Assembly (NCBI GenBank): GCA_012103315.1
Contig: WLWZ01000016.1
Span: forward strand, 6,288-70,287
Direction: 5' to 3'
Length of the DNA: 64,000 bases
Origin: Alphaproteobacteria bacterium
GTDB taxonomy: Bacteria; Pseudomonadota; Alphaproteobacteria; MPNO01; UBA2964
In this document: positions 8,401 through 53,426 of the stretch, piece after piece
How the letters are laid out: each line of letters starts with the position of its first letter
How positions within the stretch are numbered: the first letter of the stretch is position 1
Position numbers and translations under genes: made by a program
The notes under the pieces: model-generated
The model's database searches: none
The model's input: only the letters and a program-made list of their open reading frames with translations
What the model was told of the DNA's origin: nothing

Positions 8401-8496
8401 TTTCTTTCCTGTCGGTTTGAGAATTCAGTAATACCAGCCTAGCGATAGAGCCTAATCATCGCTAGGGGGAATTCTTAAATTTGAGCTGGATTATCC

Positions 8497-8528
8497 AAAA
8501 AATGCGGGGGGTGAATTTCACCCCCCGC
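8497..8528 (-). terminator. Strong rho-independent terminator (minus strand) ending the nrdJ-like transcription unit
   Basis: Perfect 12-bp GC-rich inverted repeat GCGGGGGGTGAA-t-TTCACCCCCCGC, followed on the minus strand by CATTTTTTGG. Confidence 0.8.
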
Positions 8529-8547
8529 AGTTCAGGGAGACGCAACG

Positions 8548-8820
8548 TCAAAGATGCCGTTGCTCGACAGCAGCGTCCGGTGAGGAAGAACCGGGCGCTG
8601 CACTCCGTGCCGTATCCGATGCAGAACGGCGCGAAGTTCCTGCATCACCTTTGGTTTTTTCTTCCAAGGTGATGGCTGTCTGGTTTTTACCGGGCGGTTC
8701 TTGAATAGGTGTCCGCTCAGTAGATAATCCGCGGGTGGCATGGGCGAGGGCCAATGCCTGTGACATCTCCGCAGGAGATGCATTGTTAGAAAATTTTGGG
8801 ACGTGTGTCGTAGGTTTCAT
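8548..8820 (-). CDS. Hypothetical small Ser/Ala/Thr-rich protein (90 aa, probably disordered), translationally coupled to the nrdJ-like gene
   Basis: Its ATG directly abuts the TAG stop of the upstream gene (TAGATG). It lies before the terminator hairpin. Sequence is low complexity, so it could be a non-coding 3' region. Confidence 0.3.
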   Translation of the reverse strand: MKPTTHVPKFSNNASPAEMSQALALAHATRGLSTERTPIQEPPGKNQTAITLEEKTKGDAGTSRRSASDTARSAAPGSSSPDAAVEQRHL

Positions 8821-11445
8821 CTAGGCCATTACTCCCGTTTTTGCCGAGGATTGCCCACCCTCAATGACCGTGAGGGGCGGACTGGTGGGTCGTGCATTCT
8901 CAGTGCTGACGTCGTTTGCGTATGTAGCCGTTGGGTTGAATAAATCGGAATAGTCGAATTCGTCCCGGTACAGGCAAAGTGATTTAAGGCCGAGGCGCCA
9001 GCCAGTCAGCAAAAGGACATGGAAATCTGCAACGGAGGTACTTCGCGGTAGCGCAAGAGCATGGCCTATACCGCCGGAGATCATCGGTTGAGTCGCTGCC
9101 ATCATTCGAATGATAGCATTGGTGTGATGTATTTTTTGGGTCGAGGTATCCCCGGTGACGAATACAACGGCATGGGCGAGATCGCGATACGGAAGTTCTG
9201 TCTCTGCCTGGTTTCCAAAGCAATAGCGGTTACATTCTTCGATGGCAGCATCGCTAAAGCCCATTGCTGCAAGTAGATCGAATTCAGGATTCTCTAGTTC
9301 CCCGCTATCTACGCCTAGAAGTTCGACACATTTCTCAACACCGAGTATCCATGGATTGAAGACTTGAGATAGATCAACAGCATTGGGCAGTGCGTCTTCA
9401 ATTTTATCAATAAGGTCTCCGTTGAAGCCTCGTTTCCGAAGTGTTTCGTAGTTAATGGCTGGAGCCCCTTTGAGTGACCGCCTTCCTAGAAGGGATTCGA
9501 TAAAGGTCTCGGCTTCCCTGTCGTTATAACCGAGGGCCGCTAAACCCAGGCGGACAGCCGCTGGAATAGTCGGCTGATATTCACCGTGATCGTCAACCTG
9601 TTGATGACAAAGGGTGGCCATGGGTTCTAGTCCAAACGAATGGCTATCAAGAATGGAGCTGGCATTGAGGTCAGGTGAAACAAGAGTGACTTGTGCATTG
9701 CGGAAACCGAATATTTCACCTTGGCGCTCCGCCTGCTTCCAGGCGTTAACTGTAGCGGCGTATAGGTCAGGAAGCGCTCGGCGCGGATTAATAGGGTGTG
9801 GCACCCATCCCAGTCCTTCATAGCCACCGATTTCACAGTCGGTCGCTCGTCGGTGATTGCGAATGACGCGCAACATGGAGTTCTTATTGATTTCAAAGCT
9901 CGGAAATGCGCCCATTTCTGAGGCTAAATCCGCAGACTTCTTATATGCTATTGCGGTTATCAAAGAACATATTATCGCGGCGATGGCACGGGCATCCTCG
10001 CTGTCGTAGGGCAAACCGTACGACATAATAAGTTCAGCGATGCCAGTAACAGAAAGGCCAAGCGGTCGATAGTTCCAAACTCGGTTGGCAGTTCGAGGGG
10101 TTATCTGCGCGCTATTGGTATGACCGATATCCAAAGCCAGGGTAATGAGCTCAACAGCGTAACGAAGATCGTCGACGGCCAATCCAAAATTGCCATCACG
10201 AAATGCTGTGCAGTTGATTGTCGCTCTGTTGCATCCTGTATCGTCTAGAAACAGAAAATCGCCATTGTCTGAGGCAGCATCAATTTCGCCGCCATCGGGA
10301 CAGGTATTCCAGCCCCCAACGGTCGTTGCATAATGGATACCTGTTTTCCGACCCGTCCAAGCCCCATAAGCAATTGCATCGAAGAGTTGATAGGCCTGGG
10401 CATTACCATCTACCGCGAGATCGATTGGTCCATCATCAAGGCGAACCATGGTGACGTCATTGTCGCTATTCGCTGCGTCTAAATCGTCGCCCGGCGGTGG
10501 GCCCAAAATGTCTGATGCCCTGACCTCGCAATTTTGTTCAATGAGTTCTAGCGTTCGATCAATGATGTTCTCTGGAACCTGGGCGCCACGGGCGGACTGA
10601 ATAGCCAACCGCAAGGCTGCGCTCATTGTACCGGTTGTTTTTCGGGATATTTGGCACTCCCTGTAGGCGTCGATCATCCCCTGGATATGTCGGGTTGCAA
10701 TGGAATACCCCATTAAGTGCGTTGCACTTTGAGCGTCAGCGGTACTATCCGCCCAGAGATCATCAAGCGTTCCGGGATCTGACCCATCGAGGGTCGTGCG
10801 TTTCAACGAGGGGGGCATTGGACGTTTGGGCGGTGCGACGTCATGTGTTTTGCTGCGGCGTACTAAACCAGTTTGGAAATCAGTGACAAATGTTTCAGGC
10901 AGCACCGTCTCTAGGCCATATGCCCAGTACACGCCGGTCTGTTGCCACTGCATCAGTTCAGGCGTAAATCGTCGGTGACACAACATCCACCGCGCTTCGT
11001 CATAAAACGATTTTGCGTCCTCTTCCGAATCGAAATAGCCACCTTGCCAACCGAGATAGGTCCAGCCGCCGGCCAATCGATCAATGGCGGTCCGGATACT
11101 GTTTTCACCGTGAAAAGCATCTTCACTGTCAGGTCTAGACAAAGAGGATGGATTAACAGCTTTTCGCCACAGCCACGTTGGGACTTCAGCCTCTTCAACT
11201 GAAATCAGTTGGCACGATGGTAAATCTGTAACCAAACAATTTTGGACAAAAAATGAGCAAACTTCTATCGGCCAGCTCGAAGGGACTTCGACGGCAGAGG
11301 CGTGATCTGAGTTTGTTGCTGAGAAGCGTTGATTCGTTTGTGGATCAAAAAACGCAAATTCCACGCCTTCATAAGGCGTGCTATCGGGTCGCGTATTACG
11401 TCGGGCAATTCTCACAGGTGCCCCCCGACTTCTATGCTGGACCAC
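8821..11445 (-). CDS. Class II (adenosylcobalamin-dependent) ribonucleotide reductase NrdJ homolog, apparently catalytically degenerate
   Basis: 874 aa, GTG start. The N-terminus matches alphaproteobacterial NrdJ: RIARRNTRPDSTPYEGVEF, EVPSSW, GGWTYLGWQGGYFDSEEDAKSFYDE, QWQQTGVYWAYG. The core LFDAIAYGAW...FLFLDDTGCNRATINCT matches the NrdJ segment around the radical Cys. The C-terminal IIRMMAATQPMISGGI...GWRLGLKSLCLYRDE matches the NrdJ C-terminus. However NPCxE is replaced by DNGDF, and the N-terminal active-site ACF and the GGGTGFSF / GGRRRGA / HPDI motifs are absent. Confidence 0.7.
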   Translation of the reverse strand: MVQHRSRGAPVRIARRNTRPDSTPYEGVEFAFFDPQTNQRFSATNSDHASAVEVPSSWPIEVCSFFVQNCLVTDLPSCQLISVEEAEVPTWLWRKAVNPSSLSRPDSEDAFHGENSIRTAIDRLAGGWTYLGWQGGYFDSEEDAKSFYDEARWMLCHRRFTPELMQWQQTGVYWAYGLETVLPETFVTDFQTGLVRRSKTHDVAPPKRPMPPSLKRTTLDGSDPGTLDDLWADSTADAQSATHLMGYSIATRHIQGMIDAYRECQISRKTTGTMSAALRLAIQSARGAQVPENIIDRTLELIEQNCEVRASDILGPPPGDDLDAANSDNDVTMVRLDDGPIDLAVDGNAQAYQLFDAIAYGAWTGRKTGIHYATTVGGWNTCPDGGEIDAASDNGDFLFLDDTGCNRATINCTAFRDGNFGLAVDDLRYAVELITLALDIGHTNSAQITPRTANRVWNYRPLGLSVTGIAELIMSYGLPYDSEDARAIAAIICSLITAIAYKKSADLASEMGAFPSFEINKNSMLRVIRNHRRATDCEIGGYEGLGWVPHPINPRRALPDLYAATVNAWKQAERQGEIFGFRNAQVTLVSPDLNASSILDSHSFGLEPMATLCHQQVDDHGEYQPTIPAAVRLGLAALGYNDREAETFIESLLGRRSLKGAPAINYETLRKRGFNGDLIDKIEDALPNAVDLSQVFNPWILGVEKCVELLGVDSGELENPEFDLLAAMGFSDAAIEECNRYCFGNQAETELPYRDLAHAVVFVTGDTSTQKIHHTNAIIRMMAATQPMISGGIGHALALPRSTSVADFHVLLLTGWRLGLKSLCLYRDEFDYSDLFNPTATYANDVSTENARPTSPPLTVIEGGQSSAKTGVMA

Positions 11446-11646
11446 ATCTTTTGTCTGGTCCTGCTAAATCACCAACACCAGATCGTCCCAGTGTACCCAG
11501 ACGATTTGGTCCCCCCAGATGGATTTGCCACCCCAACTAAACTTCATATACGTAACGCTACTATACGAACGGGGTTTTACAGCGTGCCCCAAATCTGGGG
11601 GGCGTATAATATTTAATCCCAATATATTGAAAAAGCAACAATATTC

Positions 11647-11692
11647 TGTGTATTGTCATATTATTGCCACAATATTCGGTGTGGTTTTCAAT
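11647..11692. promoter_or_regulatory. Tandem 16-nt imperfect direct repeats 30 nt apart in the divergent intergenic region; candidate NrdR-box-like operator pair
   Basis: Repeats CAACAATATTCTGTGT and CCACAATATTCGGTGT. Each is a partial ACA..TAT..TGT palindrome, and the spacing corresponds to about 3 helical turns. Confidence 0.3.
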
Positions 11693-13895: not shown

Positions 13896-14482
13896 AACTT
13901 GGCGGTTTTGTCCAAAGCAGATGACAGGAGCTGTCGATAGCCGCTGCGATGAATCTCGACGGCACCAAATTGATTGAGGTGATTGGTAACAAACTGGGTG
14001 TCTAACAGCGTGAAATCGCCTTTTTTAAGGCGGGCAACCAAATGAACTAAAGCGACTTTGCTTGCGTCAGTAACACGACTAAACATGCTTTCTCCAAAGA
14101 AAGCCCCCCCGAGCGCTACGCCGTATAAACCACCGACCAGTTGTTCATCGAGCCAGCATTCCACGCTATGCGCTCGTCCAATCTCAAATAAATCGACATA
14201 GAGTTTTATGAACTCCTCGTTGATCCACGTCTCTTTGCGGTCGTCTGCCGGTGTCGCGCAAAGGCGTATGACGTCCTCAAAAGCAGAGTCGCATTTAATT
14301 TCAAAGCATTGTCGACGAACGGTTTTTCTTAACCGACGCGGAATCCGGAAACGATCAAGTGGTAAGATTCCTCGTTTTTCAGGGTCAATCCAATAGAGCG
14401 TAGGGTCGTCGTGATGTTCGGCCATCGGAAACAGTCCGACGGCGTAGGCGCGGAGCAATATGTCAGGACTAAGTCCAACCAT
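13832..14482 (-). CDS. aat: Leucyl/phenylalanyl-tRNA--protein transferase
   Basis: 216 aa; [12 protein letters not shown] and [19 protein letters not shown] motifs. Confidence 0.85.
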
Positions 14483-14485
14483 TAG

Positions 14486-15835
14486 CTAGCCGTTATTGCG
14501 GGCCTCAACAAATTTCTCAAGCCAGTGAATATTATAATCGCCATTTACGAAATCAGGATCCTTTATAATTTCCTGATGCAACGGGATCGTCGTTTCGATG
14601 CCGGTAATTACATATTCCTCGAGGGCCCGATGCAAACGCATCAGGCATTCATTTCTACTCGCGCCATAAACAACGAGCTTGGAAATTAGACTGTCGTAAT
14701 GCGGGAGAACCGAATATCCGGCGTACAGTGCCGAGTCGACACGGACCCCCAACCCTCCTGGTGGATGATAGGTATGTACCTCACCGGGCGATGGTGTGAA
14801 GTCTTGCGATGATTCAGCGTTGATCCGGCATTCAATCGCATGGCCCGCAAACGTGACATCTTCCTGTGAAAACGACAAAGGCGCCCCACTTGCCAACCTG
14901 ATTTGTTCCCTAACGACATCGATGCCCGTTATCGCTTCGGTAACAGGATGCTCGACTTGCAAGCGAGTATTCATCTCAATGAAATAAAATTCACCGTCCT
15001 CATATAAGAACTCGATCGTACCAGCGTTCCGGTATTTCAATGTCGAGAGCGCTTTGCAGGCGACGTCGCCGATCGCGTCACGTCCGTCTGCGTTAAGGGC
15101 AGGGGAACCTGCTTCTTCCAAGATCTTTTGATGTCGGCGTTGCAGTGAGCAGTCGCGCTCACCGAGATGAACAACCTGTCCATTGCCGTCACCCATAACT
15201 TGTATTTCGATATGACGCGGCTTTTGTAGAAATTTTTCCATATAGACAGCGTCGTCACCGAAAGCGGCCAGCGCTTCCGTGCCGGCCTTCCGAATGGCAT
15301 TTTCAAGTTCTGACCGTTCTTGAACAATTTGCATGCCGCGACCGCCACCACCGGCAGAGGCCTTGATCAAAACTGGATAGCCTATTTCTTCTGCTACGTC
15401 CTTGGCGAGGTCTATATCCTTCACGGCACCGTCAGACCCAGGAACTACAGGAATTCCGAGTTCTTCGACTTTGGTCTTTGACGCAATCTTGTCGCCCATC
15501 AAGGCAATATGATCAGACGTTGGCCCAATAAAACAGATGCCGTGTTCCTCGACGATGGAAGCAAAGTTTGCATTCTCGGACAGGAATCCATAGCCGGGAT
15601 GGATGGCATCGGCGTTGGTTACTGTGGCCGCTGTTATGATCGCCGGTATATTGAGATAGGACTCTGTTGCAGGAGCAGGTCCGATACAGACGCTTTCATC
15701 TGCCAGCCGGACATGCATAGCATTGGCATCGACTGTGGAATGGACAGCAACCGTTTTGATTCCCATTTCCTTGCAAGCTCGGTGCACCCGCAAGGCGATT
15801 TCACCACGGTTGGCGATGAGGATTTTGTCGAACAT
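14486..15835 (-). CDS. accC: Acetyl-CoA carboxylase biotin carboxylase subunit
   Basis: 449 aa; MFDKILIANRGEIALR start, ATP-grasp fold, located downstream of accB. Confidence 0.95.
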   Translation of the reverse strand: MFDKILIANRGEIALRVHRACKEMGIKTVAVHSTVDANAMHVRLADESVCIGPAPATESYLNIPAIITAATVTNADAIHPGYGFLSENANFASIVEEHGICFIGPTSDHIALMGDKIASKTKVEELGIPVVPGSDGAVKDIDLAKDVAEEIGYPVLIKASAGGGGRGMQIVQERSELENAIRKAGTEALAAFGDDAVYMEKFLQKPRHIEIQVMGDGNGQVVHLGERDCSLQRRHQKILEEAGSPALNADGRDAIGDVACKALSTLKYRNAGTIEFLYEDGEFYFIEMNTRLQVEHPVTEAITGIDVVREQIRLASGAPLSFSQEDVTFAGHAIECRINAESSQDFTPSPGEVHTYHPPGGLGVRVDSALYAGYSVLPHYDSLISKLVVYGASRNECLMRLHRALEEYVITGIETTIPLHQEIIKDPDFVNGDYNIHWLEKFVEARNNG

Positions 15836-15845
15836 TAGTCAGTCC

Positions 15846-16295
15846 TTACTCGAGAATTACGAGTTCCTCACCAAACTCCACGGGGGATTTGTCTGGTACC
15901 GCAATTTCAACGACCTTTCCGGCCCGAGGTGCGCGTACCGGATTGAAAGTTTTCATCGCCTCAATCAACAACAAGGTTTGCCCTTCTGAAACTGTATCGC
16001 CTGGCTTTACGAATGGCGGCGCACCGGGCTCAGGCGAAAGATAGACGACCCCGACCATGGGGGCTGTCACGGCGCCTGCTCGCGGTCCGGCGTCCGCTGC
16101 CGGTGTATCAGCAGGGGGGGGTGGTGCGGAGCCAGGCATAGGTGCGGACGCTACCAGTTGACCGGATGATCCACGGGAGACCCGAACGGCATGTTCACCG
16201 ACCTTGTATTCGATTTCGGTCAATCCAGTTTCATCAAGAAGCTCGGCAAGTTTGCGGACCATTGCTTCATTTACGTCGAACTCTGCCATCAACAT
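15846..16295 (-). CDS. accB: Acetyl-CoA carboxylase biotin carboxyl carrier protein
   Basis: 149 aa; Pro/Ala linker and the EAMKT biotinyl-lysine motif. Confidence 0.9.
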
Positions 16296-16774
16296 TCCTC
16301 TTTCTCAGAAACCAGTCGTGAAATTGCATCTAGCGCTAACAAATACCCGTGTGCGCCGAATCCGCAAATCACACCGTTCGCAATCGACGAAACATAGGAG
16401 TGATGTCGAAACGGTTCCCGACTAAATATATTGGAAAGATGCAATTCAATAATTGGACATCCAACCTGCTTGAGGGCATCTAAAATTGCGATAGAGGTGT
16501 GGGTATATGCAGCAGGATTAATGATTATGCCGTCTGTCGTTCCGGCGGCATTCTGAATCCAGTCAACGATTTCTCCTTCGCTGTTACTTTGGCGGAAGTC
16601 GATACTCGTTCCAATTTCCTTTCCACGTTGGCCACATTTCTTTTCGATATCCGAAAGGGTTTCGTGACCATAGATTTTAGGCTCACGGGTTCCTAAGAGA
16701 TTTAAGTTAGGGCCGTTCAGGATCAGTATTTTAGGCATTTCGTCTGACGGATTACTTATACGTCCAATATTCAC
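16289..16774 (-). CDS. aroQ: Type II 3-dehydroquinate dehydratase
   Basis: 161 aa; [15 protein letters not shown]...YGH signature; aroQ-accB-accC gene order. Confidence 0.9.
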
Positions 16775-16965
16775 GTTGACTAACGGTTATCGTACCAAAG
16801 CAACGTACGCAATGACCGTGTAGCTTGTAATAATAGTCTATACGCCAATGCAAACGAATCGATTTCAGCATTTATTAATCATTTCCCGGAAAAATATAGT
16901 CTACAAAATTTAACTAAACCCATTCTGGCAGTTGGACCTCGACCAAACAAAGGGTCGGAATATCT

Positions 16966-17400
16966 ATGCGGTCATATGAGATACAGGTCTTTAAAGCGGG
17001 TAAATGGGAGTTCGACTCCTATTTTGAGGATCGCGAAAGTGCGATGTTTGATGCTGACCAACTGGTTGCCGATGTTCGCATCCAGGGAGTGCGGGTTTTA
17101 AAAGAGAATTACAATCAAGAGTCCAATATCGCGAAATGTGATGTCATCTTTACGCGTATGCGCAATAAGAATGGTCCGGGCGACTGGCGAAATAAAGCGC
17201 GGAAAAAGAGTGAAAATACTACGGCACCATCGGTAAGACATGAACGGGCACGACAGCCAGTACGCCGTAAAAAGCCCGTAAAAAAGCGTAATAGCCCAGT
17301 TTTAGCTCTCGTGACGTTTGCTCTAATTCTTCTCGTTGGCGGTATGGCGACTTTGTATGGACTAGGTGGATTCCCAGAATTTGCTGTCCCTTGGCTCTGA
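16966..17400 (+). CDS. Hypothetical tail-anchored membrane protein (paralog 1)
   Basis: 144 aa. N-terminal roughly 70-aa domain (MRSYEIQVFKAGKWEFDS...GVRVLKENYNQES), a Lys/Arg-rich linker, and one C-terminal TM helix. Confidence 0.5.
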   Translation: MRSYEIQVFKAGKWEFDSYFEDRESAMFDADQLVADVRIQGVRVLKENYNQESNIAKCDVIFTRMRNKNGPGDWRNKARKKSENTTAPSVRHERARQPVRRKKPVKKRNSPVLALVTFALILLVGGMATLYGLGGFPEFAVPWL

Positions 17401-17488
17401 AAAAGGACTTGCCAGTCGACTTCTGTATTTACCGGTTATTAAGGTTAATCAGTAACCCTGTCCGCTTAATATTGATCTGTGGATAGTT

Positions 17489-17989
17489 ATGACGGAAAGT
17501 ATTCCAGGTAGCGTCAGCCGCGCGGAAATCAAAGAAGAACTGCCTCAAGGGATGGAGCGGCGACTTGTTTTGCGACTTCTCACCCACTGGCGAGCAATCT
17601 GTGGCGACCGAGATTTCCCCTCATTTTCTGAGGTGGAACCGAATGATATGCCGGATATGTGGCATAGCTGCTTTGTGTTGGAAGTCGTCGGGCACGAAGA
17701 TGATCCAGTGTTCCGAACTGCTGGCGGTGAGATTTTCAGCTATGCGCCTGGTTCGCTCATTGGAACGCCTGTTTCAAATTGGACGCCGGATACGCTGATC
17801 GGCGTTGCTGTTCGTCATACGCATGGCGTTCTGCGCAAACGTGTGCCGATGTCTCATGGCGATGAGTTTGTAAAAATCGACGGTACCCGAGTTCTCTATC
17901 GAAGCATCCTGTTACCCATGAGTGATGACGGCGAAACTATAAGCGGTCTTCTTGGCGCGGCGAACTGCCGGGAAGTTCACGAGGAATAA
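17489..17989 (+). CDS. PAS_5-like PAS-fold protein (alphaproteobacterial family)
   Basis: 166 aa. Pattern L..W.......FP....V.P.DMPD....CFVLEV......VFR..G.....Y....L.G. Confidence 0.5.
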   Translation: MTESIPGSVSRAEIKEELPQGMERRLVLRLLTHWRAICGDRDFPSFSEVEPNDMPDMWHSCFVLEVVGHEDDPVFRTAGGEIFSYAPGSLIGTPVSNWTPDTLIGVAVRHTHGVLRKRVPMSHGDEFVKIDGTRVLYRSILLPMSDDGETISGLLGAANCREVHEE

Positions 17990-18025
17990 ACTGGAATCCT
18001 GAAATTCCAGTTTATGTAGCGATTT

Positions 18026-18442
18026 ATGAGAGCATTCGAGATACACACATTCCGGGGCGGCAAGTGGAAGATCGACTCCGTCTTTGACGATAAAGACTTA
18101 GCTCTTTTTGAAGCGCGCCGGATGGATCAAAGCTCGCGTTACTCTGGCGTGCGGGTCATCGAAGAACACTATAACGAAACGAGCGATGAAACGGTTTCCC
18201 GAACAATTTTCAAGGGTGGCCGAGCCGAAAAACAGGCCTCGCCCAGACAACAAGATGCCAAGAAGGAAAGCAAGGCGCCGGTCCGGCGAAAGGGTGCCGA
18301 AGGCCGCAAAGGCAGACGCAAACGTCCCGTACGGAAGAAAAAGAAATCCGGCTTAATGGTACCACTTACCATTCTTTTTGTGATTGTGATCGTCGGTCTC
18401 GGTGCAATGTTTGGTTTGCAGCATCTATCCATTCTTCAATAG
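18026..18442 (+). CDS. Hypothetical tail-anchored membrane protein (paralog 2)
   Basis: 138 aa with the same architecture as the 16966 ORF (MRAFEIHTFRGGKWKIDS...GVRVIEEHYNETS, basic linker, C-terminal TM). Confidence 0.5.
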   Translation: MRAFEIHTFRGGKWKIDSVFDDKDLALFEARRMDQSSRYSGVRVIEEHYNETSDETVSRTIFKGGRAEKQASPRQQDAKKESKAPVRRKGAEGRKGRRKRPVRKKKKSGLMVPLTILFVIVIVGLGAMFGLQHLSILQ

Positions 18443-18559
18443 GTCGTATTTAAGCCTAACAGGCGAACGATTTGTCTTCCGCAACGTCATTTCTATGTGT
18501 AAAAGCGCGTCCCTATAGAGCGTTCGGCCGACCTGCTGACGATTTTTGGATTTGCGCCT

Positions 18560-19690
18560 ATGACACCGAAGATTGAACGATTTCTTATCGAGCGGAAGCC
18601 AGACACTCCTTGTTTGGTTGTTGATCTCGATGTTGTCTCGGCGAATTTTCAGCATCTTGCTGATGAGTTGCCCGGTGTCGATATTTATTATGCCGTTAAG
18701 GCCAATCCGGCAGAGCCTATTTTGACGCGGTTGCGCGATCTAGGTAGTCATTTTGACACTGCGAGTATTTATGAGATCGATCAATGCCTGGCACTCGGTA
18801 TCGCGCCGAACCGGCTTTCATTTGGTCATACGGTAAAAAAAAAGAGACATATCAACCGGGCGTTTGATGCGGGTATCCGTCAGTTCGCATTCGACAGCAT
18901 AGATGAGTTGGAAAAGCTTTCGAGAGCGGCGCCTGGTGCTTTCGTGTTTTGCCGCTTCCTGACGTCGAACGATGGGGCTGATTGGCCGCTTTCCGACAAA
19001 TTTGGCTGCGAGCCAAACTACGCTGCAGATTTATTGTGTCGTGCGGCTGATATGGGCCTTGTGCCGTCAGGCGTTTCTTTCCATATCGGGTCACAGCAAC
19101 GTAACGCTGATTCCTGGGACTCTGCCATATTCATCGCCGCTAATATTTTCTCTAAAGTGGCTGATCGGGGCTTGGAGCTTTCGTTACTCAATATCGGCGG
19201 TGGGTTTCCGTCACGCTATCGGACGCCGATGAGCGAGTTGCCCATTCATACCGCTGCTATCAAACAAAGTTTGCAACACCGCTTTGGGGACAATCAACCA
19301 CAGATCATTGTTGAGCCGGGGCGCTATATCCCCGGTGATGCCGGGATTATTCAAAGCGAGGTCGTTTTGGTTTCGCGTAAGTCACCTGATGCAGAAAAAC
19401 GATGGGTCTATTTAGATATTGGAAAATTCGGCGGGTTACCTGAAGTTCTTGATGAGGCGATCCAATATCGCATACGGACGCCACATGATGGAGGCAAGAC
19501 GGGCCCAGTTGTGCTCGCCGGTCCAACCTGCGATGAGGTTGACGTTATTTACGACGCAGCCGCCTACGAACTGCCCTTGGATTTAGGGAGCGGTGACCGC
19601 ATTGAGATACTGAGCGCTGGCGCATATACCGCGAGTTATTCGTCGGTTGGGTTTAATGGCTTCCCACCCCTGAAAGAGTATTATATCTGA
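18560..19690 (+). CDS. Type III PLP-dependent ornithine/lysine decarboxylase (Orn/DAP/Arg decarboxylase family 2)
   Basis: 376 aa. YAVKAN PLP-lysine motif and GGG glycine loop, with a C-terminal beta-sandwich domain. Confidence 0.8.
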   Translation: MTPKIERFLIERKPDTPCLVVDLDVVSANFQHLADELPGVDIYYAVKANPAEPILTRLRDLGSHFDTASIYEIDQCLALGIAPNRLSFGHTVKKKRHINRAFDAGIRQFAFDSIDELEKLSRAAPGAFVFCRFLTSNDGADWPLSDKFGCEPNYAADLLCRAADMGLVPSGVSFHIGSQQRNADSWDSAIFIAANIFSKVADRGLELSLLNIGGGFPSRYRTPMSELPIHTAAIKQSLQHRFGDNQPQIIVEPGRYIPGDAGIIQSEVVLVSRKSPDAEKRWVYLDIGKFGGLPEVLDEAIQYRIRTPHDGGKTGPVVLAGPTCDEVDVIYDAAAYELPLDLGSGDRIEILSAGAYTASYSSVGFNGFPPLKEYYI

Positions 19691-52061: not shown

Positions 52062-53426
52062 ATGACAGATATAAAAAACTGGACCCCGCCTGAGGAAATA
52101 GAACGCGCCCAATGCGTTGCGGAGTCAGATGACATCGCCGCCCGGCCCGATATTCCTTTCACCGAGCATGAAGATCTATTCCGCATCGAGGTGGTCGGGA
52201 TGGAGTGGGATATCGGTGCACAGATCTATGAGCCATTCGATCCGTCGCAAATAGCGGTCGGCGCCGACGGCAAAAAAATTGGCGTCTATCTATTATCGGG
52301 CGGTGATGGTGATTTTAAAACCATGGCGCCGGTGGCAAAGCTGCTATGCAGTAAGTTCGGTTTCAAAGTCACCACCATGACGTATCCAGGGCGTCTCTAC
52401 CTCGATGACCCGTCTCGGCACTGGCCAGGCGATACAATCAACGCAGATGGGACAATCCGTACTCCGCAATGGTTGACCGGAGAACACATTACCCCAGATC
52501 AGTATGAGGTGGTTACCGATACCTCGATCCGTGAACGCTACGGCACCCGGACTGTCTTGCACGCCAAGCCGGGAAGCACTTTTTGGTATCGTATGGCAGG
52601 CTGGCCAGCCGCATTTGAGCGTGGCGGGATCGAGGCAATGGCGCGCAATATGCCGGAAGACGAATACTCGATTTATGTCCACGGCCACTCAACCGGCGGT
52701 CCCTTCGTCTTCATGCTGTCGCAGCGCGTGCCGAATGTCGCGGGGGTCATGGCGATTGAGAACTCTGCTTTCGGTTATATCAATGAAGCCAAGCTGGCGA
52801 AGCAAGGCTCCCTTGGAGCAATTGGTGATTTCGACCAAGTTGTTACCGAAACACAACGCACCGATCCGTTCTATGAGCTCTATATCCGCACCTGGCGCGA
52901 TAAGGCACGCTATCTTGGACCTGAAAAACTTGGGCAGGACGGGCCGGTCGCCCTCATGCGCCTACCGTCTCTGATTGAGGAGGTCATGGCGGCGTGGGAT
53001 GCGGCGAAAAACGAGCCGCAGTTCAAATGCGAATACATCGTCAGCACAAATATCGAGGCATCTCTTGAAGAAGGCGCGCGCGTCACGGCTGAACGTATGG
53101 CGTTGGGAGGCAATGAAACTGAAGTTCTGATCCACCAATTCCTGGGCTATGGCCGCGAACTTAAGGGGTCAGATGTCAAGCCGGTTCCGCCGGTTCTTTT
53201 CTGTGTTTCGAAAGACAGCCGTGATCATAGTGCCGATAGCTACCGGACAATGGTCGTGCCGAAATATGCCGAGATGGACCCAGCCCCTAAAACAGCTTTG
53301 GTCCATTTTCAGGCGGGTGTGCATTCCTACTGGTGGGCGGAAGACGGCCTGCCAAACGGGATCGCGCCCTCGGTTGCCCAACTAATGCATGATGCCGTGA
53401 TGGGCGGGTATTTCTTGGGGGACTAG
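52062..53426 (+). CDS. Alpha/beta hydrolase domain protein with an uncharacterised N-terminal extension of about 200 aa
   Basis: 454 aa; GHSTGG nucleophile elbow near residue 215; no signal peptide; 6 nt after the previous gene. Confidence 0.5.
   Translation: MTDIKNWTPPEEIERAQCVAESDDIAARPDIPFTEHEDLFRIEVVGMEWDIGAQIYEPFDPSQIAVGADGKKIGVYLLSGGDGDFKTMAPVAKLLCSKFGFKVTTMTYPGRLYLDDPSRHWPGDTINADGTIRTPQWLTGEHITPDQYEVVTDTSIRERYGTRTVLHAKPGSTFWYRMAGWPAAFERGGIEAMARNMPEDEYSIYVHGHSTGGPFVFMLSQRVPNVAGVMAIENSAFGYINEAKLAKQGSLGAIGDFDQVVTETQRTDPFYELYIRTWRDKARYLGPEKLGQDGPVALMRLPSLIEEVMAAWDAAKNEPQFKCEYIVSTNIEASLEEGARVTAERMALGGNETEVLIHQFLGYGRELKGSDVKPVPPVLFCVSKDSRDHSADSYRTMVVPKYAEMDPAPKTALVHFQAGVHSYWWAEDGLPNGIAPSVAQLMHDAVMGGYFLGD

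Follow-up and report, generated by a model that had tools for sequence, protein, structure and literature searches.

How can a gene for NrdJ, the class II ribonucleotide reductase (RNR), persist in a bacterial genome when the residues that make its product an enzyme are gone? The question is raised by a gene on the minus strand of a 64,000-nucleotide (nt) stretch of contig WLWZ01000016.1 (positions 6,288 to 70,287; assembly GCA_012103315.1) from an alphaproteobacterium assigned to UBA2964, hereafter referred to as the window, in which an earlier note made from the sequence alone had recognized an NrdJ homolog that seemed to lack its catalytic cysteines. We refer to the product of this gene as pseudo-NrdJ. 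It is a catalytically dead positional ortholog of NrdJ that is maintained by purifying selection, and a covarying RNA structure extends over its former C-terminal tail. The open reading frame (ORF) and the segments in which catalytic parts were lost are the following.

8821..11445, minus strand: pseudo-NrdJ ORF, 874 amino acids (aa) from the mechanically assigned GTG at 11445, ending with the TAG at 8821-8823
10801..10824, minus strand: RPMPPSLK (aa 208-215), site of the lost PHACF cysteine and junction of a deletion of about 100 aa
10255..10275, minus strand: ASDNGDF (aa 391-397), remnant of the finger loop that replaces SNPCSEY in three alignments
9658..9681, minus strand: VSPDLNAS (aa 589-596), which replaces the substrate-phosphate loop IAPTGTIG (MAFFT, hhalign)

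An NrdJ homolog without its catalytic residues

The intact 874-codon ORF was confirmed. Its probable start is the GTG at 11415, as indicated by the N-termini of homologs and by an identical database protein (P0001), which gives a protein of 864 aa beginning with VRIARRNT. Two Pfam domains were identified, the RNR barrel Ribonuc_red_lgC (PF02867, E-value 9e-38) and the class II N-terminal domain Ribonuc_red_2_N (PF08471, 2.6e-14), and the nearest solved structure is the R. sphaeroides NrdJ (7b9p, phmmer E-value 1e-119). The score against the NCBIfam equivalog model for long NrdJ (NF005736) is 523.5 bits, which is 30% of the cutoff of 1737 and places pseudo-NrdJ outside the family. Membership in NF005401 (PRK06948, "ribonucleotide reductase-like protein"), likewise an RNR-like family named as non-canonical, was rejected, since the match scored 68.6 bits where 906 are required and covered 66 residues only. 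Database searches recovered a tight clade of proteins (P0001-P0010; 56-100% identity, 864-996 aa), all annotated as "hypothetical", beyond which the identity falls sharply to 34% with canonical NrdJs of 1244 aa. No second RNR was found among the large ORFs of the 64-kb window.

The phmmer alignment to 7b9p, a MAFFT alignment with canonical NrdJs and an hhalign comparison of the clade profile to a canonical NrdJ profile (probability 100, E-value 6e-137) all place the canonical SNPCSEY opposite ASDNGDF, with the catalytic Asn replaced by Ser, the thiyl-radical Cys by Asn and the Glu by Asp. The catalytic loss suggested in the earlier note is thus borne out, but its assignments of Cys to Gly and Glu to Phe were one register off. 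In a profile alignment to NrdJ, of the kind that it had proposed as a check, no Cys or Glu aligns to the finger-loop positions, and none of the clade members has the NPC(S/G)E motif with its Cys, Asn and Glu. The first redox Cys (PHACF in βA) is gone as well, its segment being deleted or rewritten according to MAFFT, hhalign and phmmer. Also deleted is a block of about 100 aa with GSGTG...GGTTRRAA, which holds specificity loops 1 and 2. The earlier observation that these segments are missing holds in the MAFFT and hhalign alignments. In the same two alignments, the APTGT phosphate loop has become SPDLN and SKTIN has become GHALA. A C-terminal Zn-finger/Cys reductant tail is described for the long class II RNRs in PMC9669993; neither the IscU-like/TSCPD domain (PF12637) nor a CxxC Zn-finger tail was detected in pseudo-NrdJ by Pfam or in the alignments. 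The second redox Cys (βF, DDTGCN) is the sole survivor of the catalytic set in the window clade, and is lost in P0013 and P0018. Because the radical Cys, the first redox Cys, the Asn and Glu, the loops and the tail have been lost, pseudo-NrdJ, to judge from its sequence, is incapable of ribonucleotide reduction through the known mechanism.

Many other cysteines (C63, C70, C156, C613, C706, C742 and C824) are invariant in the dead clade and missing in canonical NrdJ, for example in LCLYRD, as compared to ALYRD in the canonical proteins. An alignment of 13 dead forms, P0013, P0018 and P0029 among them, shows no variation at C706 and almost none at C63 and C742. This clade-specific set could form a new metal or redox site.

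The fold itself appears to be retained. An AlphaFold2 model built from an alignment of 36 sequences reached a mean predicted local distance difference test score (pLDDT) of 80.9 and a predicted template modeling score (pTM) of 0.83, with disorder limited to linker loops and residues 830-874. Foldseek superimposed the model onto 7b9p (TM-score 0.72, E-value 3e-51), followed by the T. maritima NrdJ and then by class I alpha subunits. Pfam, AlphaFold2 and Foldseek thus agree in predicting that the ten-stranded RNR barrel and the class II N-terminal domain are kept; structure prediction had been suggested as a check on whether the barrel persists, and it gives an affirmative answer. Pseudo-NrdJ shares with the long dimeric NrdJ represented by 7b9p the genomic slot, the PF08471 domain, the barrel fold and a helical insert, and the NrdR operators and the leader are homologous, but it is without the radical Cys, the first redox Cys, the Asn and Glu, the PTGT loop, loops 1 and 2, TSCPD and the Zn-finger, is only 34% identical and evolves much faster.

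The finger-loop Cys is conserved in all characterized RNRs according to the portions available of two family surveys, in which a Cys-less NrdJ is not mentioned (10.1101/2022.04.23.489257, PMC9669993). A full-text literature search for RNR pseudoenzymes returned nothing relevant, and no paper on an inactive NrdJ was found, as the earlier note had surmised. The M45 and UL45 proteins of betaherpesviruses are catalytically inactive homologs of the RNR large subunit that are kept for a non-enzymatic role. Like pseudo-NrdJ, they are proteins of the RNR alpha type that have been retained after the loss of the catalytic residues. They differ in being viral, derived from class I and equipped with added host-interaction motifs, and there is no evolutionary link to pseudo-NrdJ, which is bacterial, of class II and has an embedded RNA.

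Degeneration in place under purifying selection

The gene is located in a block with the order M48 peptidase ... AroQ-AccB-AccC-Aat-DUF2155-methyltransferase-MlaD-NDUFA12, NrdJ-like, RidA-FemAB-like-ClpA-ClpS. This order holds for every clade member for which the context is available, namely the window, the TARA scaffolds L002 and L003, P0003, L004, P0013, the metagenome-assembled genomes (MAGs) from GTDB (L009-L012) and the divergent members L169-L172. The same slot after NDUFA12 is filled by a canonical nrdJ gene for a protein of 1244 aa in two other genomes, those of Dongia soli and of a Rhodospirillaceae MAG (loci L007 and L008). Pseudo-nrdJ is therefore an nrdJ gene that has degenerated in place, a positional ortholog and not the inactive paralog for which it had been taken. 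The carriers are UBA2964-type and "Rhodospirillaceae" MAGs of uncultured marine Alphaproteobacteria.

Two observations from these loci are recorded here in their own right. Directly 3' of the canonical nrdJ in L007, genes for a TIR-domain protein, a SIR2-like protein and a HerA/DUF87 ATPase (positions 13923-18830) make up what looks like an anti-phage defense island. Elsewhere in the window, an ORF of 454 aa on the plus strand (52062-53426) has no Pfam match at E-values of 1e-5 or below.

The ratio of nonsynonymous to synonymous divergence (omega, Nei-Gojobori) in the gene body is 0.12-0.17 at synonymous divergences (dS) of 0.5-1.5, with a value of 0.15 at a dS of 0.47 for L011 and L091. Constraint extends over the whole fold (pN/pS 0.12-0.39) and is strongest in the second half of the barrel and the βI-βJ region, with the finger-loop flanks and βJ among the tightest segments (0.12-0.19). 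The frame is open across 870-1000 codons in about 15 lineages in which synonymous sites are saturated and the identity is down to 34%. The open frame at saturated dS and the low omega together exclude a neutral pseudogene. The marks of one, a disrupted frame and an omega near 1, are absent, with exceptions such as the TAG before the tail in the window, a truncation in L013 and gene fragments in Hankyongella. The previous conclusion that this is no pseudogene is upheld by these values and by the confident barrel model.

Other NrdJs have also lost the cysteine. A profile of the dead members retrieved 13,869 NrdJ-type matches from 1.84 billion cluster representatives. By an approximate pattern rule, NPCxE was lacking in 98 of 185 full-length sequences (the top 150 plus earlier matches), and all five scored catalytic motifs were lacking in 62 of the 191 sequences counted. 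Among the Cys-less proteins (clusters P0055, P0213-P0216 and P0208) are WP_272835829 of Paracoccus aestuarii, encoded by an 889-aa ORF, and TXG83006 from a Sphingomonadales MAG. Both bear the NCBI name "vitamin B12-dependent ribonucleotide reductase", while other dead NrdJs are named "ribonucleoside-diphosphate reductase alpha chain" by JGI. The nearest relatives of the P. aestuarii protein are canonical Paracoccus NrdJs with an identity of only 47-49%, and the 120 matches listed include no canonical NrdJ from P. aestuarii itself. Both findings suggest that its degeneration was independent. A single origin of all dead NrdJs, as a neighbor-joining tree with 51 of 52 dead forms in one clade would have it, was rejected in view of these canonical relatives, and the near-monophyly is probably caused by long-branch attraction. 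At least two origins are likely from the sequence comparisons. At the Paracoccus-type locus L005 (6911-9691), the dead NrdJ gene is located 3' of genes for an inositol monophosphatase (suhB-like), mgtE and 5-formyl-THF cyclo-ligase, and neither NrdR boxes nor the RNA element described below are present, so that the marine clade has another context.

A covarying RNA over the former tail, and predicted operators upstream

The region downstream of the stop codon in the window comprises the following features, of which the helices and the single-stranded segment were defined with RNAalifold.

8548..8820, minus strand: severed C-terminal tail, 90 codons with an ATG directly after the TAG, an in-frame fusion in most relatives
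8489..8697, minus strand: conserved structured RNA at the transcript 3' end, about 200 nt with five helices, supported by folds and covariation
8643-8675, minus strand: helix SL0
8603-8636, minus strand: helix SL-A
8570-8601, minus strand: helix SL-B
8542-8563, minus strand: helix SL-C, which includes the TGA of the tail
8531-8541, minus strand: invariant single-stranded CU-rich segment GUCUCCCUGAA
8497-8529, minus strand: intrinsic terminator hairpin

The downstream ORF had been interpreted as a coupled partner gene. It is instead the ancestral tail of the same gene, split off by the TAG and conserved mainly as RNA. In P0003-P0010, the 90 aa of this ORF form the in-frame C-terminal tail (...GAMTQMKP...), and the TAG of the window replaces a Gln codon of the relatives (GCC TAG ATG AAA). 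Another assembly (L001), with a single difference in 4596 nt, has the same TAG. A separate in-frame TGA is found in three diverged sequences of the UBA2964 lineage (L009, L089 and L090), which read GKD-stop-T where the others read GKDRT, just 5' of SL0, and in which the frame past the TGA is open to the same conserved end (...QQRHI). The end of the tail, nearly invariant in the other sequences, has five substitutions in these three, and their terminator stem contains an expanded G-run of up to about 20 G.

Synonymous divergence in the tail is 2-3 times below that in the body, and omega (0.3-0.96) is above it. In the last 35 or so codons, the variable fractions at the three codon positions are 0.32, 0.21 and 0.26, as compared to 0.51, 0.34 and 0.89 in the body, with no third-position wobble. 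Nucleotide identity continues past the stop codon as far as the terminator, and does so even in L004 with its protein identity of only 34%. The C-terminus of P0049 (...SSNGMFDVASP) is encoded by the same DNA block in the +1 frame. The equal codon positions, the identity through the stop codon and the frame used in P0049 show that the tail is conserved at the nucleotide level. The tail nucleotides may stem from a frameshifted Zn-finger: in an alternative frame they encode C[GR]NFAP, which is also found in the intermediate P0013, and the RNA model has a weak match to the canonical nrdJ of L007 (see below). The protein-level scores, however, are within those of shuffled sequences.

The conservation of the tail and of the downstream ORF is explained by the RNA and not by a peptide motif. 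Single-sequence folds of the window and L004 share the same architecture, with z-scores of -6.4 and -5.0, respectively. Among 8 sequences, 13 base pairs change on both sides, as compared to 3.6±1.5 in shuffled alignments (0/500) and 0-3 with slid partners. With four more divergent loci, found by a covariance model at 86-149 bits, the count is 23 of 49 pairs, as compared to 10.3±1.8 in shuffled alignments (0/500) and 2-7 with slid partners, and 91.7% of the cells are paired. A separate MAFFT and alifold alignment recovered the same helices, and the strong terminator reported previously is real. The covariance model matches all clade loci and nothing else, apart from a weak 18.5-bit match on the 3' coding sequence of the canonical nrdJ in L007. 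That match aside, neither the element (model R1) nor mmgR was detected near canonical nrdJ genes or in Paracoccus-type loci. No internal promoter was found on the strand of the RNA in a sigma-70-like scan of the E. coli type, which is weak evidence in an alphaproteobacterial host. With no such promoter ahead of it, an RNA derived from the 3' end of the pseudo-nrdJ transcript is the simplest reading, and this is probably how it arises.

The RNA weakly resembles the CU-rich small RNAs (sRNAs) of Alphaproteobacteria and is not a member of them by Rfam criteria. MmgR is a 77-nt Hfq-dependent sRNA that acts in trans (PMC7143759, PMC8401924). Its family, MmgR/SuhB (alpha-r8, RF00519), has the same layout of a small hairpin, a single-stranded ..CGUU..CUCCCU..ACU.. 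segment and a terminator hairpin, but mmgR is an intergenic gene, whereas the element described here is located at or in the 3' end of a long ORF and has three extra helices upstream. The "CCUCCUCCC-motif" sRNAs CcsR1-4 of Rhodobacter (RF02791) share with it the tandem hairpins with C/U-rich loops, with UCUUCCUC in SL-B. The position of the element is also similar, since the CcsR sRNAs presumably are produced from the 3' end of a coding transcript, although from a different upstream gene than pseudo-nrdJ.

Upstream of the gene, the following features were identified.

11636..11682, minus strand: predicted NrdR-type operator 1, box A ACACCGAATATTGTGG (11667-11682), 15-bp linker, box B ACACAGAATATTGTTG (11636-11651)
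11586..11632, minus strand: predicted NrdR-type operator 2, box C TTTCAATATATTGGGA (11617-11632), 15-bp linker, box D CCCCCAGATTTGGGGC (11586-11601)
11606..11633, minus strand: sigma-70-like promoter TTTTCA-16-TATTAT, overlapping box C, from a consensus scan only, with the transcription start deduced from it
11416..11602, minus strand: conserved leader of about 185 nt with the invariant complementary blocks CCCCCCAGA (11594-11602) and UCUGGGGGGACCAA (11506-11519)

A binding site for NrdR consists of two boxes of 16 bp (C4, A6, A8, T9, T11 and G13) with a linker of 15-16 bp (PMC13584703). Operator 1, located about 190 nt upstream of pseudo-nrdJ, has 5/6 conserved positions in each box and was the single site in the window to pass a first screen for C4 and G13 in both boxes with at least 63% AT between them; it is conserved in L009-L012, L170 and L171, where its position is unchanged. 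Operator 2 has 6/6 positions in each box and passes only at a threshold of 60%, because the AT content of box D is 62.5%. In the alignment it coincides with a 6/6 plus 6/6 site of the canonical nrdJ in L007 and L008, and L012 and L170-L172 have aligned sites as well. The two operators are the only such candidates within the window. Candidate pairs are found upstream of every pseudo-nrdJ of the marine clade and account for all box pairs at each of these loci; no candidate pairs were found in the Paracoccus-type loci. Predicted NrdR-type operators are thus retained at the pseudo-nrdJ locus, which probably still belongs to the NrdR regulon.

The complementary blocks of the leader are about 95 nt apart; the first doubles as box D, and the second is also written UCUGGGGGG. 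A conserved GTAGTAGCGTTGAGTA motif is present in the leader as well. Its closing helix is invariant in the alifold analysis and hence gives no covariation signal either way. A B12 or other known riboswitch was looked for in the leader and rejected, as no Rfam match was obtained; the leader may be a structure or a switch. In the first 40 or so codons of the gene (11300-11415, minus strand), pS is 0.30 as compared to about 0.62 in the rest of the body, which suggests constraint at the nucleotide level around the translation start.

Explanations for the locus and their meaning

We consider it probable, with reservations that are set out below, that nrdJ degenerated in place into a selected, non-catalytic pseudo-NrdJ, and that the NrdR-gated locus yields both a scaffold protein and a 3'-end RNA. 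Transcription would take place through NrdR when dATP/ATP is low. The first product would be a folded, non-catalytic NrdJ scaffold, for which the constraint on the second barrel half, on βI-βJ and on the former adenosyl pocket may suggest a retained binding role. The second would be a stable 3'-end RNA with an exposed GUCUCCCUGAA that could pair with G-rich ribosome-binding sites, by analogy to the action supposed for the MmgR and CcsR sRNAs. Deoxynucleoside triphosphates (dNTPs) would be synthesized by another RNR encoded elsewhere in the genome.

Several observations weigh against this explanation. Pseudo-NrdJ is the fastest-evolving gene of its block, with identities of 70%, 56% and 34% between the window and L009, L002 and L004, as compared to 78-93%, 73-96% and 53-86% for the neighboring genes, respectively. 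The forms shorten stepwise from 1244 to 990, 950 and 872 aa, and in-frame stops have arisen in the tail of two lineages. In the closed 4.15-Mb MAG OX638326.1 (L013), an insertion sequence (IS) and a pair of restriction-modification (RM) genes interrupt the gene near residue 469, and the related dead NrdJ of Hankyongella ginsenosidimutans is broken into three adjacent ORFs (E6W36_15320/25/30). In L004 and L169, the linker of the predicted operators has 14 bp, whereas a length of 15-16 bp has been published. On the side of the RNA, the full-length Rfam model RF00519 matches the SL-C/CUCCCU/terminator module in three divergent copies, at 22.7, 21.1 and 17.9 bits in the window, L171 and L172, respectively, with a cutoff of 41, and SL-A and SL-B match CcsR1 (RF02791) at 22.1 bits with a cutoff of 65 in one copy only, that of L172. 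The proposal that the gene is maintained therefore stands as far as selection is concerned but does not apply uniformly, given the IS/RM cut in L013, the tail stops in two lineages and the Hankyongella fragments. The insertion in L013 is as follows.

7463-9959 of L013: insertion in the dead nrdJ that encodes a 318-aa IS-type transposase, a 306-aa DNA methyltransferase and a 207-aa putative restriction enzyme

The 3' half of the gene, the fused tail and the RNA element, which retains its full score of 245 bits, are still intact in L013 and adjoin RidA. The excess of nonsynonymous divergence in this copy (0.38 as compared to 0.32-0.34 to the outgroup) is only modest and does not decide whether constraint has been relaxed.

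A wider version of the dual-product explanation, which we put forward as speculation, is that the gene for an essential enzyme was turned into a reporter of dNTP status, in which an NrdR-gated scaffold that may still bind cobalamin or a partner would, along with a 3' sRNA made from what was the C-terminal coding region, couple replication demand to the translation of other genes, and that the route from enzyme to pseudoenzyme was taken more than once (in the marine clade, P. aestuarii and Sphingomonadales).

The stepwise in-frame shrinkage and the fast evolution would also be expected if the ORF were mainly a translated carrier for the 3' RNA, with the NrdR-controlled promoter 2.9 kb upstream and a protein that is itself functionless; nonsense and frameshift mutations would then cause transcriptional polarity, so that only in-frame erosion is tolerated. 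The lack of an internal promoter ahead of the RNA in the sigma-70-like scan, the position of both lineage-specific stops near the RNA in a poorly conserved linker and the better conservation of the RNA than of the protein fit such a carrier. We nevertheless find it unlikely, as the omega of 0.12-0.17, the fold-wide constraint and the confident barrel point to selection at the amino-acid level, and a deletion joining the promoter to the RNA would be expected over such a time span. Moreover, P. aestuarii keeps a dead ORF of 889 aa without such an RNA, and in L013 the RNA has been kept but not the promoter upstream.

A repurposed cobalamin binder, one of the roles favored in the earlier note, would act as a sensor, store or chaperone for adenosylcobalamin. 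The barrel is indeed retained, and the segments under the tightest constraint include the finger-loop flanks and βJ, which in class II RNRs border the adenosyl pocket (10.1101/2022.04.23.489257). The finger loop itself has been rewritten, however, there is no B12 riboswitch in Rfam searches and there are no B12 genes nearby, and control by NrdR suits dNTP status better than B12 status, which makes this role in our view quite unlikely.

A slowly decaying relic, that is, a pseudogene in progress, could account for the TAG in the window, the TGA in the UBA2964 lineage, the IS disruption in L013, the three fragments in Hankyongella and the loss of all functional motifs. It is difficult to reconcile with a frame of about 900 codons kept in about 15 lineages at saturated dS and identities down to 34%, with an omega of about 0.15 and with conserved upstream operators and leader; omega and the integrity of the ORF already largely refute it, and we regard it as very improbable. 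That pseudo-NrdJ is still an active RNR with non-canonical residues, as the retained NrdR operators and the annotation of the P. aestuarii protein might imply, is scarcely credible, since three alignments show no Cys at the finger-loop tip, the phosphate loop, specificity loops and reductant tail are missing and P0013 and P0018 have lost the remaining Cys too.

RNRs are treated as universally catalytic enzymes with an invariant finger-loop Cys, and a bacterial NrdJ that lacks this residue and is nevertheless under selection is a surprise. Genome-based inference of B12 dependence and of RNR repertoires will miscount dead NrdJs that are named as active enzymes; for the marine lineages studied here this is an extrapolation, as the copies in these lineages are named only "hypothetical protein". 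P. aestuarii is a cultured carrier and makes the question of the protein accessible to experiment. If the dual-product explanation is true, the reuse of a coding 3' end as a structured RNA under NrdR would be a clear regulatory exaptation of an enzyme gene, and dNTP status may be linked to riboregulation.

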